This document shows, in pieces, positions 1,302 through 64,000 of a DNA stretch of 64,000 bases. How positions within the stretch are numbered: the first letter of the stretch is position 1; each line of letters opens with the position of its first letter. Source of the stretch: a virus; IMG/VR virus record IMGVR_UViG_3300035684_000001, positions 1 through 64,000 of that record; one strand, given 5' to 3'. A model generated the notes under the pieces. That model was given only the letters and a program-made list of their open reading frames with translations. It had not been told where the DNA came from and searched no databases. Made by a program: the position numbers and the translations under genes.

Positions 1302-1367
1302 AATGCGGTCAATTTGTCGTACCTACTATTTTACACGAAACCACTCAAAAATTATATTACATAAATA

Positions 1368-1396
1368 TTGACATCTGCAATACAATTGTCTAAGAT
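1368..1396 (+). promoter_or_regulatory. sigma70-type promoter of the csx3-like unit
   Basis: TTGACA-17 nt-TAAGAT; AGGAG SD before ATG 1427. Confidence 0.65.
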
Positions 1397-1426
1397 AATT
1401 TTATGAATTAAATTCAGGAGACACAC

Positions 1427-1732
1427 ATGGAAGTTAAAGTGACCGAAAATAATGGCGTGACGCTGTTGGAGATTTTGAAAGACGGCAATCCTGTTAATGC
1501 TCAAAATCCAGTGTTTATTGAGGAATTGCCAGATTTGGTGATTCCAGAACTTTCTGGCGGGTCTGTGGCGATCGTCTCGGGGATGCCTTTCTGGGCTTCT
1601 AGCCGGGTTATGCTTGCTGTCAAGAATATTTTTGGGGCGATCGCCGTGTACGATCCCAAACTAGCCGGCGGCGTGGTAGTACACACCACATCACCTAATT
1701 ATAAAGTTGGTGCCATACTCCCTTTGGGCTAG
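1427..1732 (+). CDS. csx3: Csx3/Crn3-like (ring nuclease family) protein
   Basis: 101 aa; IVSGMPFW...AIAVYDPKLAGGVVVHTTSPNYKVGAIL parallels the Csx3 pattern ISGRGPIW...VAVYDPRLGAVVV.SH...GDVI. Confidence 0.7.
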   Translation: MEVKVTENNGVTLLEILKDGNPVNAQNPVFIEELPDLVIPELSGGSVAIVSGMPFWASSRVMLAVKNIFGAIAVYDPKLAGGVVVHTTSPNYKVGAILPLG

Positions 1733-1743
1733 CTTATCTTTGC

Positions 1744-1887
1744 TTGTCCCGGCGTCAAAGTAGAAAGCCGGGTCCCAAACCCACGGGTAAAGGTTTGACA
1801 GTTTACATCCCGTTTAAAATCTGCGAATCCGCTCGAAACTGCGAATGGGAACCCGTAATTGACTGGTTCAAGAATTGTTTAGAATGA
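1744..1887 (+). CDS. small basic protein (47 aa, TTG start), possible DNA-binding regulator
   Basis: My translation: LSRRQSRKPGPKPTGKGLTVYIPFKICESARNCEWEPVIDWFKNCLE; fills the gap between csx3 and the terminator. Confidence 0.5.
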   Translation: MSRRQSRKPGPKPTGKGLTVYIPFKICESARNCEWEPVIDWFKNCLE

Positions 1888-1927
1888 AAAAGCGGGCGAT
1901 CGAATAACTCCGATCGCCCGCTTTTTT
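1887..1927. terminator. bidirectional intrinsic terminator with HIP1-based arms
   Basis: AAAAAGCGGGCGATCG-loop-CGATCGCCCGCTTTTTT. Confidence 0.8.
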
Positions 1928-7058: not shown

Positions 7059-7643
7059 TTAGACTGGCGGTTCTTTAGTTTTCAACTTTTGATTTTCGTT
7101 CAACAAAAATTCTGCGATCACCACAAGAGTTTCAATATCCCGCCTAGAATCGACTATAAAATAAGCATCCTGTTCGTTGTCTAGCGGTTCTTCAACTTCT
7201 AGAACTTTGATAGCCTCATCCCCTATTTCATGTATTTCAGAACCCCGAGAGTCGCCCCTGCTAGCTGAATATTCCAAAACTCGTTTGTTTTCTAGTCCTT
7301 CTTCTTCTCGCGATCCGAAATTAGTTTCCCAGTTTGCCCACCGCCAAGGTCCCTGAGTGACTCCCGCCAATTTGTATTTGATATCTTCGATTATGCTTGC
7401 AATAGCTTGCGGGTTTAAATCTTGACTATCTGCAACATTTTTTTGTTGTTTAGACAATAAATCAAGGTGTTTATCAACCGCTTCCTGAAAATTTTTGACT
7501 GCTTCTTTTGGCGTTTCACCTTGAAAAGTAATTGCAGAACGATACCTTGTTGCTACTGCATTGCCAAAAAAAGACTCGCTGTCTTGGTCGTACTCGAATA
7601 TTCCTTCGTAACCTTTGTATTCTGAAATTAACATTTTACACAT
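7059..7643 (-). CDS. HicB-like N-terminus fused to an Ead/Ea22-like phage domain
   Basis: YKGYEGIFEYD...ITFQGETPKEAVKNFQEAVD (HicB); TQGPWRW...DAYFI...DIETL (Ead/Ea22-like). Confidence 0.6.
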   Translation of the reverse strand: MCKMLISEYKGYEGIFEYDQDSESFFGNAVATRYRSAITFQGETPKEAVKNFQEAVDKHLDLLSKQQKNVADSQDLNPQAIASIIEDIKYKLAGVTQGPWRWANWETNFGSREEEGLENKRVLEYSASRGDSRGSEIHEIGDEAIKVLEVEEPLDNEQDAYFIVDSRRDIETLVVIAEFLLNENQKLKTKEPPV

Positions 7644-12429: not shown

Positions 12430-12636
12430 TCATCTAAACAGGATTTCTCGTACTTTCTTGTCGGATGTAAGTATTAAAACTTTTGCTCCTTCTTTTCTAG
12501 CGCGGTAAAGATAATCTTCAGTAGCAATAGCTTTCCGGATTGCTTCCTCTATATTTATCCCTTGGTCTTGAGCAAGTTTTGTTAGAAGATCGGAAGCGTC
12601 TCCCGACAAAGAGACGGTGATATTATTTCTCTTCAT
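12430..12636 (-). CDS. ribbon-helix-helix (CopG-like) regulator
   Basis: ITVSLSGDASDLLTKLAQDQGINIEEAIRKAIA. Confidence 0.75.
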   Translation of the reverse strand: MKRNNITVSLSGDASDLLTKLAQDQGINIEEAIRKAIATEDYLYRARKEGAKVLILTSDKKVREILFR

Positions 12637-13175
12637 GGTAAGTCCATAAACTTAATTCCAATACACTCATTTTCACAGCGGGCAACAACTATTTTTTGTT
12701 GAAGTTCAAACCACTGGCGATCGTCCATTCCCAGAGCATCTCCAATAAGTATGCCCATTTCAGAAGAAATTGGTCTATAACCCAGAATAAATTCTAAAAC
12801 TGTTTTTGGGTGAACGCCAAGCATTTCAGCAAACTTGCTAGGACATACACCTGTTTCTTCAATGGCAGCAGCGAGAATTTTCCCCGGAGGTATTGGGAGA
12901 GTTGATTGCCCGCAAAGCGCATCTACCATTTGTGAAGGTTGATATGTACTTGAATCGATATCATCAGGTGTTTCAGCTTCAATGTCAATGTAGTGTGTAC
13001 AGCTTCCAATTGTTTTAACAATAAGATTGGAAGTTTCTATACAAAAAATACTTTTTTGATAAAAAACTAAATAACCTATTAATTTCTCTTTAAACCAAGC
13101 GCTTTTAGGTATAAAACAGGCGGCTAAAACTTTTTGTTTGGGTAAATTGTTTGGATCTATAGTTTGCCAAATCAT
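12633..13175 (-). CDS. phage-like N-terminal domain fused to a HigA/VapI-like HTH
   Basis: PIPPGKILAAAIEETGVCPSKFAEMLGV...ISSEMGILIGDALG...WFELQ. Confidence 0.65.
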   Translation of the reverse strand: MIWQTIDPNNLPKQKVLAACFIPKSAWFKEKLIGYLVFYQKSIFCIETSNLIVKTIGSCTHYIDIEAETPDDIDSSTYQPSQMVDALCGQSTLPIPPGKILAAAIEETGVCPSKFAEMLGVHPKTVLEFILGYRPISSEMGILIGDALGMDDRQWFELQQKIVVARCENECIGIKFMDLP

Positions 13176-31510: not shown

Positions 31511-32686
31511 TCAGCGAATCCAGTTTATTATCAAGCTCTGCTGTATTTCTAGCAAATTCCAGGGTTCGATCGCCAGCAGTTCGATCGCCACCCCAGTATC
31601 TGCGTGTTTCAGACTTACCCTCGGAACCGAGTAGCTGAAATTCGGTTGATTCTCAAGGGCGATCGCCAAAGTTCTAGGAAAAGTCTGATCGCCCCAAACA
31701 CCAAAAGGTGGGTTTACATTTGCCTGAATTGCTGTAGCTGCAAGGTTAAAAGCCTCGTTATTCGAGAGAGTCGGTATAATCCTCACATCTATTTCGCCGG
31801 CGATCGGGATAATTTCGGCGGGAATGACCTCAACATTAATTCCGTGCAACTCCCTGTCGGTCATCTCGGGCTGAATTAATTTGGTGATTCCCGGCGGGTA
31901 CACGGCGATCGTCACTAAGTTTGCATATTGCACCTTAGATCCCTTTTTAATCCTCGGGAGAAAAGCAACCTTTGACGCGCCTAAGTCTAGGGCAGCCCTG
32001 TAATAATCCCTGGGATTGACAAGATTTCCAGCGGATTGAATTGCTTGTCGAGCTCGCAGCATCGCTTCTGGAAGCGTCTCCGGTTCCTTCCCTTCAAACA
32101 GCACTTCCGTATTGGCGACCGAATCGATCCAATTTATATCTTCGGAGATAATAGAGTATTCGCCGGGCCAAATATTCGTGGATACCTTGCCGGGGCGATC
32201 AAGCCTGGCGGGTACTTCGCCCATATCGGAATTTTCATCTATATATAGATCGTAAATAGTCGTAGCAATTTCTCCGGCGATCGATTTAACCTCTGTCCCC
32301 AGCGGAACTTTTGCCGGAATGCCGGAGACAATTGCATCGGGCGATCGTCGAAATACCAAATTGATTACGGGTCTTTCCGCCAAGCCCATCTCAACTCCGA
32401 GCAATCGAAACCAGCGCACCCACAGGGAATCTGGGACTAAGTTGATTTCGTGACCGATTAAAGCGTGGAGGTAGGCGATCGCCCCCATAATTTGCCCGTG
32501 CGCTGACAAAGGATTTCTAGAGCTAAACGGTGATTCAACCCCATCGATTGACTGCGCCAACATATCGAGCGAAGCAGCGTGAATCTTTTCAATGTTGACA
32601 TTGTAGAGTTGAAACGAAGGAAGGATCGAGGGATCTTTTGCCAAGATCGCTTCTAATTGATAATGTCCAGAATATTTCTTAAACAT
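31511..32686 (-). CDS. baseplate J/gp47-like protein
   Basis: Flanks: VPLGTEV...ATT; GKEPETLPEAMLRAR; PRDYYRAAL. Confidence 0.8.
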   Translation of the reverse strand: MFKKYSGHYQLEAILAKDPSILPSFQLYNVNIEKIHAASLDMLAQSIDGVESPFSSRNPLSAHGQIMGAIAYLHALIGHEINLVPDSLWVRWFRLLGVEMGLAERPVINLVFRRSPDAIVSGIPAKVPLGTEVKSIAGEIATTIYDLYIDENSDMGEVPARLDRPGKVSTNIWPGEYSIISEDINWIDSVANTEVLFEGKEPETLPEAMLRARQAIQSAGNLVNPRDYYRAALDLGASKVAFLPRIKKGSKVQYANLVTIAVYPPGITKLIQPEMTDRELHGINVEVIPAEIIPIAGEIDVRIIPTLSNNEAFNLAATAIQANVNPPFGVWGDQTFPRTLAIALENQPNFSYSVPRVSLKHADTGVAIELLAIEPWNLLEIQQSLIINWIR

Positions 32687-34152: not shown

Positions 34153-34629
34153 ATGAAAGCACCGTTTGACTTCTTTTTTGTGCCAAAAGAATACTTAGAA
34201 ATTGATGATATTGACGTTAATGTTCAACACCTTTTCGATAAGGTCGCATCCCTAGAATTTTATAAAGCGATCAGCGCAATCGCCGAAAGATACAATATTG
34301 ACTATGTGTTAACAAGAACCTGCGTAATAAAAGTTAAGAAATCGCAACCTACATCTACGCTCAATTTGTATGCAATTTGTAAAAATGTCTTTGAGGGTGA
34401 TGAGGAAGATAATTGGGCAGCGCGACACTTAATTCTGCGTGTATATCTAATGTGTAAACTTTACTTACGGTCAAAATATTGCTCATTGTTACATCGCCAC
34501 ACTGGTAAATGCAAATTTTCCTTTCGGACCAGGCTCAAACAAACTAACCAGTACGCACATTTCAGCGAAGTTAGTTGCGTGGAAGTAGTGGTCGGGTGCC
34601 CCCGGTGCTTCTATCCACCTTCCGTTTGA
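34153..34629 (+). CDS. hypothetical protein; 3' end overlaps terL antisense
   Basis: 158-aa ORF. Confidence 0.4.
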   Translation: MKAPFDFFFVPKEYLEIDDIDVNVQHLFDKVASLEFYKAISAIAERYNIDYVLTRTCVIKVKKSQPTSTLNLYAICKNVFEGDEEDNWAARHLILRVYLMCKLYLRSKYCSLLHRHTGKCKFSFRTRLKQTNQYAHFSEVSCVEVVVGCPRCFYPPSV

Positions 34630-36510
34630 CTGTCGATCGCTCGTAATGAAGTGATACAAAAAATTTCCTTTGTCTTTGGCATTGTAGCTCAAGTCTTCAG
34701 GAAGGTGGAACAACCCTCGGTAGATCCGATCGCGGACGCTATCTAGTCCAAAGGTGCGGTCGATCGAGTAGATAGTAAACTCGGTTTCTTTCGCCGTACT
34801 CTTAACTTTCCGGGTAGTCCGCTTGAACTGTTCCTTCATGGAAACTTGATCGAAAAGATAAACTTGCCCCTTCTTTTGAACCCGATCGCCCTTCTTGGAC
34901 ACGCTCGCTCCCGTCGGCAAATGCAGGAGTGCATACTCCGTGGCCAGTTGAATTTCCGGTTCGGAATCCATGCCGATTAAATCGACTTCGTACTGTAGGG
35001 CGATCGCCTCGGCATCTTGGATCGTTCCGAGTTCTCCAAACCAAATGTTGTTCACTCTGGCGGTTTTCCACCAGTCATTTTTAGAACCATGAAAATTTAG
35101 ATACCATTTTTGAACGATTCCGTAATTCGGTCGCCCCTGATCTAGTCCCAGGACGGTTAAAGTAGGAATTTCGGCAAAATCGGGGTGCGATCGCCCGACG
35201 CAGCTCAGGAGTCTGCCCAGGTCAATCTTGCCGCCGGACAGAGAAATAGATTCTCCGAGCCTCTGCTGAATTTCATCTCTAGGGTTGTCCGTTGTGAACA
35301 ACCGTCGCAATCTTTCAGGCGCAGAAAACAGCAAAGATGCCAGCACCGGAAATTCAAGGGCTACTGTTTCGCGAACAATTTTGCGTTCCCGCGTCACTTC
35401 ATCGTTTAAATCTCTCAATGTAACACCCGATCTCGTACAAGCAAATTTTCCGTCGGTGATCGCATCTCTCGGTATTTCCTCGGTGCAGGACTGACAGCCT
35501 ATATAAGCCGAGTCGATTGCCCGCTCCTTGTCGTCTCCTTGTAGTTGCCAGTCTTCAGTGTTTGCTGGATTGGGCGATCGGTGGAACCACTTCAGCGGTC
35601 TGCCCGCAATATCGAAAAATCGCAGTTCTTCCGTGTCGGACTCTTTGAACAGAGCCGGACGCAAAAAATTGCCAGACTGGTTTTCGGTAGAAAAAGGAAC
35701 TAAAAATTGAGCGGTTTGGCAGTGGGGGCATTTAACCAGCCACTGAAAGGAATATTTTGCCCGTTTCATTTCAGAGTCGAGAATCGATCCTTCGTAGGAT
35801 GGAGTTGAACCGGCTCGGACAAGTTTGGTCGGCATTCGAGACGCGGCCATCCGACTGATGGCAATATCAAGTACGCCCTTGGGCCACAAGCTAAATTCGT
35901 CGGCTAAAATCGCGCAAGCTGTAAACGATCTGAGCGTAGCTGGGGCTTGTTCTGCTACAGTCTTTGATTTGACGCAGGCATAGAAAAACGAAATCTTTGT
36001 GCCGGCAACCGTTATCGAGGTTTTGTTGTCTATGTCTTCGCGCCCTGTCGCCCCGTGCCGATCACGGTTCAATTTCTGAATTGGCTCGCAGTAGTCTAGC
36101 GCTGGCTGAATCCGGGAGCCAACCATGTCCCGAAGTTTTTGTTGTTCCTCAAATCCAAAACCGATGGGTGATCGCAGGTAGCCGGCATAGAATTCGGCTG
36201 TGGCGACCAATCCTTCAGAGTAACCTACTTGAGCAGCTTTTTTAATGACTTCTTTTTCTAGCCAGGGACAGCCTATTGCCAGATAAACCTCTTCTAAAAA
36301 TACCTCGTCCCAAGAAAGCGGTTCTCCAGAACTTGTTCGGTGGTGTTCTTTGACCCACTGCAAGTAAACGTCGCCTCCCCCGTCGTACCAGCTAGCGATT
36401 GCTGCTTCGCGGGCGATCGCTGTCTCATCGACAAACTTTTCTCTCTGTTTTTTGTTAGACTTTTTTTGGCGGGCGATCGCCCGCGAGGCGCGACCTAAAC
36501 TGGGAGCCAT
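34489..36510 (-). CDS. terL: terminase large subunit (GpA-like)
   Basis: KKAAQVGYSE Walker A; ILADE Walker B; AGSTP; CPHC/CQSC zinc motif; VLGLDQG nuclease; DHYFHA. Confidence 0.85.
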   Translation of the reverse strand: MAPSLGRASRAIARQKKSNKKQREKFVDETAIAREAAIASWYDGGGDVYLQWVKEHHRTSSGEPLSWDEVFLEEVYLAIGCPWLEKEVIKKAAQVGYSEGLVATAEFYAGYLRSPIGFGFEEQQKLRDMVGSRIQPALDYCEPIQKLNRDRHGATGREDIDNKTSITVAGTKISFFYACVKSKTVAEQAPATLRSFTACAILADEFSLWPKGVLDIAISRMAASRMPTKLVRAGSTPSYEGSILDSEMKRAKYSFQWLVKCPHCQTAQFLVPFSTENQSGNFLRPALFKESDTEELRFFDIAGRPLKWFHRSPNPANTEDWQLQGDDKERAIDSAYIGCQSCTEEIPRDAITDGKFACTRSGVTLRDLNDEVTRERKIVRETVALEFPVLASLLFSAPERLRRLFTTDNPRDEIQQRLGESISLSGGKIDLGRLLSCVGRSHPDFAEIPTLTVLGLDQGRPNYGIVQKWYLNFHGSKNDWWKTARVNNIWFGELGTIQDAEAIALQYEVDLIGMDSEPEIQLATEYALLHLPTGASVSKKGDRVQKKGQVYLFDQVSMKEQFKRTTRKVKSTAKETEFTIYSIDRTFGLDSVRDRIYRGLFHLPEDLSYNAKDKGNFLYHFITSDRQSNGRWIEAPGAPDHYFHATNFAEMCVLVSLFEPGPKGKFAFTSVAM

Positions 36511-62513: not shown

Positions 62514-64000
62514 TTAGTCGCCAAAGAAGTCGCTATCATCGTCGAAATCATTGAGACTGGTACTAACAGGTTCTTCGGCGTCATCATCGAAAAAGTCACT
62601 GTCATCGTCAAAATCATTGCTAAAATCTTCGTCGTCATCGTCGTCGAAGAAATCGCTATCGTCATCAAAATCCTTGAATGTACAAAGATTTATTTCGTCA
62701 TTTGTGTCTTCACGATCGCCCGCAAAGACTTCTACATCTATTGAAGCCAACTTTGGAAGTACAGCTTCACAGGAAGACATAACCCGATCCACCCAGTTGG
62801 GCAATTGCTCTAGAAGTAGTTTTAATTCTTCTATCGTGTCACTGTCTACTCCCTCATAAGTGCAGGGAGAGTCGGTCTGCCAAAACTCATAAGTCTCAGT
62901 AGGTTCTGATTCTTTAGGCTCTGGTTCTTTTTGTGACTCTGCTGGAGAGTCTTGTTCTTGGGGAACTTCTTGAGGATTTAATTGCTCTTCGAGTTCCACT
63001 TGCTCATCTAAGAGTTGCTTTAGTTCTTCGGCTCCTACGAAAGGAGTCGATAGTGCATCCCCCAAAGATTTATAGTTGGCGCGAGCCAGTCTTAACTCCT
63101 CCGTGGATGAGTCGATTTCTTTTTGAATCACATTGCAAATACTCTCAATGTTTAAAGATTCTACAATCTTCGTTCTGTTACTTGAGGGAAGAATGTAGCT
63201 TCCTTTTCCGCCCAGAATTAAATTTATCGAGAGGGTTCGCGGACTTAGTTCTGCGCGTAGTTGGTAATCAGCAAACTTGCCGATAACAGGATTGAATTTG
63301 TTGACCGCCGCAGGATTGTCTTTAATATTTCGCAGGTTATTTAGTTTTTCTGCGATTATCTTGCCAATTTCCTCGGCATTTTTCTTATTGTTATCGATTT
63401 CTTGACCCACCAAGAACAATTTCGGTTCGGCAGTTTTGACTTGTGCCAAATCTGCCTGCATCTTTTCGATCGAATCGCATAGAAAATCTATCCTTTTTAC
63501 GGACCTATCTAAGGCTACAGTGTTTTGATAGCGTTGCTGCTCGTATCCTCTTTGCTGAATCAGCAAAGAATTTACGAGGCGATCAACATCTATTTTGCGC
63601 TTGATGCATTCGTCACCGCTGGCGATCGCCATCATCGTTGCAGCAGAAGCTACAAACGGGTCGATGTCGTCGCTGGCGTTACCGGGAGCTTCTCCCGACA
63701 TCAAGAATTGGAACGATTCTAATTTCTGAAGGATTACCCCCCAGATGTAGGAATCGAAACCGGGTTTACCTTCCACGCCTTGAGTAGCGTAGCGGAAAAT
63801 AAACACGTTGTCGAACAAGTTACCTTGACGCACGATGCGCCCAGATCGCTGTTCGATATCTGAAGGCCTCCAAGGACAATCCATGTCGTGAACGGCCAGC
63901 AGTCGAGATTGGATGTTGACTCCGGTTCCCAGTTTTTGAGTCGAACCCAAAATAACTCGGATTTCACCGGAATTAACTTTTCCCATCATTTTTTTACGAG
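62514..64000 (-). CDS. C-terminal part of a large SNF2-type helicase (DarB-like helicase/methylase); 5' end outside window
   Basis: RVILGSTQKLGTGVNIQ...HDMDCPWRPSDIEQRSGRIVRQGN; FDSYIW..ILQK; acidic repeat tail. Confidence 0.8.
   Translation of the reverse strand, partial: RKKMMGKVNSGEIRVILGSTQKLGTGVNIQSRLLAVHDMDCPWRPSDIEQRSGRIVRQGNLFDNVFIFRYATQGVEGKPGFDSYIWGVILQKLESFQFLMSGEAPGNASDDIDPFVASAATMMAIASGDECIKRKIDVDRLVNSLLIQQRGYEQQRYQNTVALDRSVKRIDFLCDSIEKMQADLAQVKTAEPKLFLVGQEIDNNKKNAEEIGKIIAEKLNNLRNIKDNPAAVNKFNPVIGKFADYQLRAELSPRTLSINLILGGKGSYILPSSNRTKIVESLNIESICNVIQKEIDSSTEELRLARANYKSLGDALSTPFVGAEELKQLLDEQVELEEQLNPQEVPQEQDSPAESQKEPEPKESEPTETYEFWQTDSPCTYEGVDSDTIEELKLLLEQLPNWVDRVMSSCEAVLPKLASIDVEVFAGDREDTNDEINLCTFKDFDDDSDFFDDDDDEDFSNDFDDDSDFFDDDAEEPVSTSLNDFDDDSDFFGD

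Follow-up and report, generated by a model that had tools for sequence, protein, structure and literature searches.

Near the left end of a 64,000-nucleotide stretch of viral DNA (the window, which is the first 64 kb of the 188,553-bp IMG/VR viral record IMGVR_UViG_3300035684_000001) lies a compact plus-strand cassette, at 1281–1927, in which a promoter, a Shine-Dalgarno (SD) sequence, an open reading frame (ORF) for a 101-residue protein, a further open frame and a strong terminator follow one another. The protein resembles Csx3, a cellular protein that destroys the alarm signal of type III CRISPR systems. A preliminary description of the window, made without database searches, had read the two open frames as a two-gene unit in which a captured ring nuclease or sponge would act as an anti-CRISPR and a small Aca-like protein would act as its autoregulator. 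Comparison with related sequences points instead to a phage Csx3-like lineage with remodelled active-site residues and a conserved tail that would be added by −1 ribosomal frameshifting; its function we infer from these features, and the cassette is a candidate anti-CRISPR device.

The signals that frame the cassette are those that the preliminary description had picked out. A sigma-70-type promoter (1368–1396, plus strand), TTGACA and TAAGAT separated by 17 nucleotides, matches the consensus at 10 of 12 positions, and the SD sequence AGGAG (1416–1420, plus strand) lies 6 nucleotides before the ATG at 1427. At the other end, an intrinsic terminator (1892–1927, plus strand) consists of an 11-bp GC-rich stem with arms at 1892–1902 and 1911–1921, an 8-nucleotide loop and a T6 tract at 1922–1927, with a folding energy of −30.6 kcal/mol and a z score of −9.4. 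The promoter match alone is not above chance, with 10 such sites in the region against 7.2 ± 2.6 in shuffled sequences; the two hexamers do recur, however, at the related loci L002, L003 and L012. Because an A-run flanks the terminator, it is probably bidirectional, and Rfam returned only sub-threshold matches, on this hairpin.

The first ORF (1427–1732, plus strand, with its TAG stop at 1730–1732) encodes a member of the Csx3 family. Residues 26–98 of its product align with positions 5–77 of the 78 in the Pfam profile Cas_csx3 (PF09620), scoring 43.6 bits where the gathering cut-off is 21. An AlphaFold2 model built on an 83-sequence alignment has a pLDDT (predicted local distance difference test) of 94.4, and the top PDB matches to it in a Foldseek search are all Csx3 of Archaeoglobus fulgidus (AfCsx3; 6yud, 3wzg and 6vjg), with template-modelling (TM) scores of 0.66–0.73, a probability of 1.00 and E values of about 1e-5; the next match is Cat1, which binds cyclic tetra-adenylate (cA4). 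Relative to L002 and L003 the gene has a ratio of nonsynonymous to synonymous substitution rates (dN/dS) of 0.06–0.29. The earlier description of this ORF as Csx3-like agrees with the Pfam profile and the modelled structure, and the view that its product is a stand-alone Csx3-family protein, carried on a phage without cas neighbours, is supported.

The active site of this protein departs from that of most of its kin. A profile search of 1.84 billion representative sequences returned 345 relatives, most of which carry A-H-x-x-x-H before a Y/F-D-P-K motif, whereas the window protein and about twenty others read K-N instead. In a quick maximum-likelihood tree, 21 of the 22 K-N rows cluster together and are split from 54 canonical rows with 98% support in the Shimodaira–Hasegawa-like approximate likelihood ratio test (SH-aLRT), which suggests that the K-N branch is a separate lineage of the Csx3 family without the canonical His triad. 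As had been noticed by eye, the canonical His segment reads LAVKN in the window and the Asp of the YDP motif is kept, as D76. When residues are counted from this Asp in a sequence alignment, the only basis for the mapping, H60 of AfCsx3 falls on N67, 9 residues before the Asp, H57 falls on V64 or L63, and H80 falls on T88; two residues before T88, and on the same strand, stands His86, which is conserved in the branch. K66, N67 and H86 are nearly invariant across the K-N branch. In the Csx3 family at large, H57, H60 and H80 are absolutely conserved and are needed for Mn-dependent cleavage (Athukoralage et al. 2020, PMC7371418), and the AfCsx3 variants H60A and D69A are inactive (PMC7371418). 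The cA4 ligand is held mainly by the "D69 face" of AfCsx3, comprising I22, S44, G45, R46, I49 and R71 (PMC7371418), and on the corresponding face the window protein appears to keep S51-G52, D76 and K78.

The comparison with Crn3/Csx3 (A. fulgidus AF_1864; 6YUD, 3WZG, 6VJG; PF09620, TIGR02579) can therefore be drawn in both directions. The two are alike in fold, in Pfam family and in a size of about 100 residues, and the window protein appears to retain the S-G loop, the Y-D-P-[KR] motif and the Asp of the D69 face. They differ in that the window protein reads V64, N67 and T88 for H57, H60 and H80 and Met for R46, scores below the equivalog cut-off, is encoded by a phage in whose record no type III locus was found, and is followed by a tail in the −1 frame.

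Three viral clades, about 39–75% identical, have a common layout in which the csx3-like gene ends in a slippery heptamer followed by a tail in the −1 frame. The window belongs to a close clade (clade 1) of six members that are 68–75% identical, from which two further loci were fetched, L002 on a 188,942-bp IMG/VR contig and L003 on a 4.3-kb metagenome contig. Clade 2 (P0022-like) is about 44% identical and has 57 cluster members, represented here by loci L007–L011 on IMG/VR contigs of 17–95 kb, and clade 3 (P0071-like) is represented by L012 on a 56-kb IMG/VR contig. Two pattern scans of the GTDB representative genomes found no member; the sole pattern match, L005 in a metagenome-assembled genome of Clostridia, proved to be a spurious partial match. 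A tblastn search gave no match among the INPHARED phages, and scans of viral contigs with P0008 and P0009, two members of the branch that are named Csx3 in assemblies of Desertifilum and Planktothrix, gave none either. With L002 and L007–L012 all on IMG/VR contigs, which range from 17 to 189 kb, the K-N branch looks viral.

Downstream of csx3, the −1 frame is open for 53 codons and a TGA (1726–1887, plus strand, TGA at 1885–1887), and it contains the 47-residue basic ORF (1744–1887) that had been described as a second gene. This ORF is present, in the −1 frame relative to csx3, but its own TTG start is not conserved in relatives: L002 has CTG and L003 has CTA in place of the TTG at 1744, each of the three being a Leu codon, and in L003 there is no ATG, GTG or TTG anywhere in the frame. 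No SD sequence precedes the TTG, and neither clade 1 nor clade 2 has a conserved start codon in the −1 frame. Purifying selection on this frame reaches back to the csx3 stop. In clade 1, the 53 codons from 1726 give dN/dS of 0.10–0.36 by the Nei-Gojobori method, whereas the other two frames give 0.9–2.4 and contain stops, and the nine-codon "linker" that leads from the csx3 stop to the old TTG, taken separately, gives 0.10–0.26. Likewise, in clade 2 the −1 frame gives 0.04–0.11, and the other frames give 0.67–3.8 with stops. In the upstream direction, the −1 frame of clade 1 is closed within 7–12 codons and offers no canonical start in that stretch; in most loci it opens only 3 to 12 codons before the heptamer, and in L010 and L012 only three codons are open, so that the site at which the frame could change is pinned. 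Because the start codon is not conserved, no separate product has been called among 5.8 billion proteins, and the frame is conserved as coding right up to the csx3 stop, the 47-residue ORF is most plausibly an extension of Csx3 made by −1 frameshifting and not an independent gene.

A candidate site for such a frameshift lies within this overlap of the two frames. The heptamer C_CCT_TTG (1720–1726, plus strand), one codon before the TAG, is in the 0-frame phase that is correct for tandem tRNA slippage, and it is embedded in CTCCCTTTGGG, which at 11 nucleotides is the longest stretch without variation among 461 aligned nucleotides of three loci. The same heptamer is found in L002, L003 and L007–L011. 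Clade-2 genes end in ..C_CCT_TTG_Gxx_TAA with a −1 frame that runs on for 44–47 codons, and the clade-3 gene of L012 follows the same pattern with ..C_CCT_TTA_TAA. Both C_CC.U_UU.G and C_CC.U_UU.A are among 18 heptamers that are avoided in Escherichia coli genes, and these 18 shift at more than 0.1% without a stimulator in that organism (Sharma et al. 2014, PMC4066793). A stem-loop that is a candidate stimulator (1736–1794, plus strand, −24.4 kcal/mol) begins 9 nucleotides downstream of the heptamer in the window, and one is predicted 5–10 nucleotides after the heptamer in every locus, at −22 to −36 kcal/mol, always with its 3′ arm on the codons of a P-x-T-G-x-G motif. Relative to shuffled sequences its z score is −4.0 in L002, −3.6 in L003, −2.6 in L007, −3.9 in L008 and −6.4 in L010. 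Taken together, the layout would be the standard anatomy of programmed −1 ribosomal frameshifting, with predicted products of 101 residues and of 153 residues (residues 1–100 plus 53).

Programmed −1 frameshifting is known from phage tail assembly chaperones (lambda G and GT) and from dnaX. The cassette resembles them in having an X_XXY_YYZ heptamer near the end of the upstream frame, a hairpin downstream of it, and two predicted products that share an N-terminus and would be made at a fixed ratio; it differs in the class of gene concerned, a candidate counter-defence protein. Two other explanations for the offset between the frames were considered and rejected: transcriptional slippage, as the site has no homopolymer longer than 3 nucleotides, and assembly error, as the offset recurs in 9 loci on 8 distinct contigs from three clades. 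An apparent single-frame fusion of Csx3 to a tail, P0029 (153 residues), turned out to be a canonical Csx3 with an unrelated tail.

The tail itself is a small basic peptide. Tails align across clades 1 and 2 with G1, L5, R10, K14, G16, T20, G21, G23, Y27 and P29 invariant, and by eye the clade-3 tail shares a GRPATG...YIP core with them. The conserved core comprises a basic arm, a short Y-I-P strand and an amphipathic helix, the arm reading KPGPKPTGKG in the window's clade and the AT-hook-like RGRPATGQG in clade 2. In an AlphaFold2 model from a three-sequence alignment, the basic first half is disordered and two helices follow, at residues 30–37 and 41–52, with pLDDT of about 92–95. No tail-like protein, free or fused, of similar or greater length was found among 5.8 billion clusters. 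Fold searches with Foldseek and VIA-align gave nothing clear for a peptide of only 53 residues (best Z of 2.6 in the wide VIA-align search). A ribbon-helix-helix (RHH) or AT-hook identity, guessed from the basic arm, the strand and the helices, was supported by none of the searches. With these searches empty, the fold of the tail and its binding to DNA remain guesses.

If the tail did act on the cassette's own promoter, an operator might be expected there, and a candidate exists. An inverted repeat surrounds the promoter (1348–1402, plus strand), with 17-nucleotide arms at 1348–1364 and 1386–1402 that are 82% complementary, the right arm overlapping the −10 hexamer. L002 and L012 have analogous repeats that overlap the −10 hexamer with the same right arm (GTCTAAGAT / ATCTAAGAT). 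The evidence for an operator is weak, since the spacing of the repeat varies among loci and the motif ATCTNAGAT is not enriched in the window (39 occurrences against 29.6 ± 5.2). In clade 2, the region upstream of the csx3-like gene of L008 (L008:5895–5965) carries nested perfect inverted repeats, CGGCCATT/AATGGCCG and TAAGAAT-CAA-ATTCTTA, which may be an operator, or an RNA element, particular to clade 2.

The wider setting of the cassette is that of a phage, as the preliminary description had recognized. The window encodes a terminase large subunit (34492–36510), a baseplate wedge protein (31514–32686), an endolysin-type peptidase, an HNH endonuclease and a DarB-like antirestriction helicase, and the terminase and baseplate genes, together with the viral record in IMG/VR, identify the element as a phage. 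Homology to the related phage L002 spans exactly 1281–1925 and the flanking genes are rearranged, which indicates that the cassette acts as a discrete module. The best explanation of the whole is a contractile-tailed cyanophage of about 189 kb that carries the csx3-like cassette, 1281–1927, as a self-contained accessory (moron-like) module. A gene for a 252-residue protein with an N-terminal XRE/HigA-like helix-turn-helix (HTH) lies at 2012–2770 on the minus strand (TIGR02607 at 38.9 bits, below the cut-off; PF01381) and converges on the probably bidirectional terminator of the cassette; because its L002 homologue is 3 kb from the cassette, it is not a conserved partner.

The earlier statement that the 64 kb hold neither cas genes nor a repeat array extends to the entire 188,553-bp record, in which no match was found for RAMP proteins, Cmr2-type Cas10 (TIGR02577) or Cas1 (Csm1-type Cas10 was not searched for) and no CRISPR-like repeat array was found. 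The left edge of the window is also the left edge of the record, with no further record DNA upstream. The homologue of the record's right end in L002 lies immediately ahead of the cassette region there, so the two ends of the record are neighbours in a related genome, and between the ends so joined L002 has no cas locus. The neighbourhoods of homologues agree with this, in that L002 and L007–L012 lie on IMG/VR viral contigs and no cas genes were seen in the flanks of L002 and L008, those of L008 containing genes for helicase and HTH proteins.

Considering these observations together, the account that we favour, and to which we give about even credence, is that programmed −1 frameshifting yields a 101-residue Csx3-like protein and a 153-residue basic-tailed isoform that intercept cyclic oligoadenylate (cOA). 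In outline, one mRNA running from the strong promoter to the strong terminator encodes a Csx3-fold protein; most ribosomes would stop at the TAG and release the 101-residue product, and a fixed fraction would slip back by one on CCC-UUU to make the isoform that joins residues 1–100 to the 53-residue basic tail with its arm, YIP strand and helical hairpin. Because the cA4 face (S51-G52, D76, K78) is kept and the His triad is lost, the abundant short product probably captures the cOA made by the host's type III CRISPR complex, and as there is no Mn-His site the signal would be sequestered or turned over by another route. The cOA-activated effectors would then be blunted by sponge action, or by a slower, non-canonical chemistry possibly involving K66, N67 and H86. 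The minor tailed isoform probably binds nucleic acid, and the most economical role for the tail would be feedback on its own promoter, an Aca-like function within the same gene. A ring nuclease or sponge directed against type III immunity, as first suggested for this protein, is thus a reasonable role for a phage Csx3 that has no cas neighbours and lacks the catalytic His, although the two-gene acr-aca unit proposed with it is unsupported: the small ORF has no independent start, and no HTH or RHH is recognized in it. The tail may have an Aca-like autoregulatory role. Euryarchaea and cyanobacteria are the groups in which Csx3 is commonest (PMC7371418), and a cyanophage target is in line with this.

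Several observations weigh against this account. At the level of the protein, the window sequence reaches only 27.1 bits against the equivalog cut-off of 55.4 for NCBIfam TIGR02579, AfCsx3 R46, which contacts cA4, appears to be Met53 in the window, and clades 2 and 3 have Asn where AfCsx3 has D69, so that even the binding face has drifted. At the level of the RNA, the window's own hairpin is barely more stable than shuffled sequences (z = −1.7), covariation in the consensus folds amounts to one compensatory pair per clade, and the frameshift comparison rests on 7 distinct loci, or 8 when the broken tail of L011 is included. As for the tail, no DNA-binding family was found for it in Pfam (E ≤ 10), by PDB profile search, by Foldseek, by VIA-align or in the ESM Atlas, and in L011 (6303–6400) it is cut off after the GRPATGQGES arm and continues into unrelated sequence, which implies that the tail is dispensable in at least one phage and that the Csx3 core can stand alone. 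L011 is, in effect, a natural tail-less variant within clade 2. Finally, cOA binding, cleavage and anti-CRISPR activity are all things that we infer for this protein.

An alternative that retains the same target but not the same chemistry is that the K-N branch is an active viral ring nuclease, cleaving cA4 or another cOA quickly through K66, N67 and H86 much as AcrIII-1 does, with the tail being secondary. The near-invariance of these three residues in the branch indicates continuing selection on that face, the window's clade retains D76 and K78, and metal-independent ring nucleases, AcrIII-1 and Crn1, are known (PMC7371418, PMC12409355). However, the single change H60A abolishes the activity of AfCsx3, whose H57, H60 and H80 are described as absolutely conserved among Csx3 proteins (PMC7371418), and Asn stands in place of D76 in clades 2 and 3, whereas the D69A variant of AfCsx3 is inactive; we regard fast cleavage as unlikely, while keeping it under consideration.

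It is also conceivable that the cassette listens to the alarm signal. In that case the tailed isoform would be a cA4-responsive DNA-binding regulator that, like Csa3, shifts the phage programme when the type III alarm is raised, and the short isoform would tune it. A ligand-binding fold joined at a fixed ratio to a basic, AT-hook-like tail, the loss of the catalytic His residues and the presence of a candidate operator are all in keeping with such a sensor, but the tail binds DNA only by supposition, has no known regulated target and is disrupted in L011, and we hold this to be quite improbable. A compound of the two ideas, in which a Csx3-derived lineage dedicated to phages of filamentous cyanobacteria and their relatives has given up ring-nuclease chemistry and, by conserved −1 frameshifting, yields a free cOA-binding sponge together with a cA4-sensing tailed regulator at a set ratio, is speculative to the same degree. 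If it were true, the phage would both mute and listen to the type III alarm, and would adjust its own expression to it.

About as improbable is a function that has nothing to do with cOA, in which the Csx3/STAS-like fold would serve in RNA binding, in deadenylation or as a protein–protein switch in phage development. AfCsx3 does also bind and trim RNA in vitro (PMC7371418), the active-site residues of the K-N branch are strongly remodelled, and nothing links the cassette directly to a type III host system. On the other side, the nearest structural neighbours, AfCsx3 and then Cat1, all bind cA4, the S-G loop, the Asp and the K/R of the cA4 face are kept, and Csx3 proteins otherwise go together with type III loci (PMC7371418, PMC12409355). 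The two-gene arrangement, with a Csx3-like anti-CRISPR and a small Aca-like repressor made from its own TTG at 1744, is very improbable, for although that TTG does open a 47-residue ORF in the window, the peptide is basic and an inverted repeat brackets the promoter, the start is missing from L002 and from a sister locus with no ATG, GTG or TTG in the frame (L003), no SD precedes it, the coding constraint reaches upstream past it to the csx3 stop, with the same picture in clades 2 and 3, and the small protein is absent from records.

Returning to the account of a frameshifted Csx3-like protein that intercepts cOA, it is informative to set it beside other viral and cellular systems. AcrIII-1 (DUF1874), viral SAVED, Csx16 and Csx20 are likewise small stand-alone viral proteins with a cOA-binding fold and their own promoter, and share with the cassette the proposed role of removing the type III second messenger; they differ from it in having an unrelated fold, and catalysis by the window protein is doubtful. 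The phage sponges Acb2, Tad1 and Tad2 sequester immune second messengers and do not cleave them. Such "sponges" are mentioned in PMC12751052. The cassette may work in like manner, by sequestration, but these sponges have other folds and act on other signals, those of CBASS and Thoeris. Proteins in which Acr and Aca functions are fused, such as AcrIIA1 and AcrIF24, are known as well. With these and with Acr-Aca operons in general the cassette shares a strong promoter, a counter-defence gene and an attached module that might repress that promoter; the cassette, by contrast, lacks an aca gene as such, no HTH or RHH is recognizable in the tail, and the fusion would come about by recoding and not within a single ORF. 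Csa3, finally, is a cellular cA4-responsive transcription factor composed of a CARF domain and a winged HTH. The likeness lies in a cOA-binding domain joined to a putative DNA-binding part, but the CARF domain is not a Csx3 fold, the winged HTH of Csa3 is well defined, and no frameshift is involved.

Elsewhere in the window, several genes and sequences bear on the biology of this phage. A giant protein of the DarB-like antirestriction helicase/methyltransferase type is encoded on the minus strand at 62517–63989, running off the end of the window (phrog_10089, E = 4e-50), and is a second candidate counter-defence gene of the same phage. Two minus-strand ORFs, at 7062–7643 and 12636–13175, have PHROG matches to a HicB-like antitoxin and to a "plasmid antitoxin with HTH", and both are among otherwise unknown genes adjoining the lysin. 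At the left edge of the record, positions 1–126 on the minus strand encode the first 42 residues of a FabI enoyl-ACP (acyl carrier protein) reductase that runs off the record end (E = 2e-9 to PDB FabI chains), and about 60 nucleotides further inward, at 190–279 on the plus strand, are only the C-terminal 26 or so codons of a leucine-rich repeat (LRR) protein that is intact in L002. The right end of the record matches the L002 DNA just upstream of that LRR gene, and joining the two ends of the record does not restore the FabI ORF. The FabI edge would be either a prophage–host junction left by provirus trimming or a captured host fragment, and it bears on the question whether the phage is temperate.

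Among 28,114 phage genomes surveyed for such enzymes, AcrIII-1, Csx20 and Csx16 were present, and no Crn3 was reported (PMC12409355). In the literature searched, we found no paper that combines Csx3 and cyanophage, none on a phage Csx3-like lineage with a −1 frameshift tail, and none that ties frameshifting to an anti-CRISPR gene. Within the annotation of viral genomes, the cassette is a caution that small "aca-like" ORFs behind such genes may not be genes. The known viral countermeasures to type III signalling are few, namely AcrIII-1, a viral SAVED enzyme and some copies of Csx16 and Csx20. A phage Csx3 lineage that keeps the ligand face and lacks the His triad would be the first Csx3-type anti-CRISPR or the first sponge for the cOA of type III systems. 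Furthermore, programmed frameshifting is undescribed for counter-defence genes in the literature that we searched, and recoding of this kind would be a simple route by which a phage could obtain an effector together with a regulator, or with a tethered form of itself, from one short gene and at a fixed ratio.

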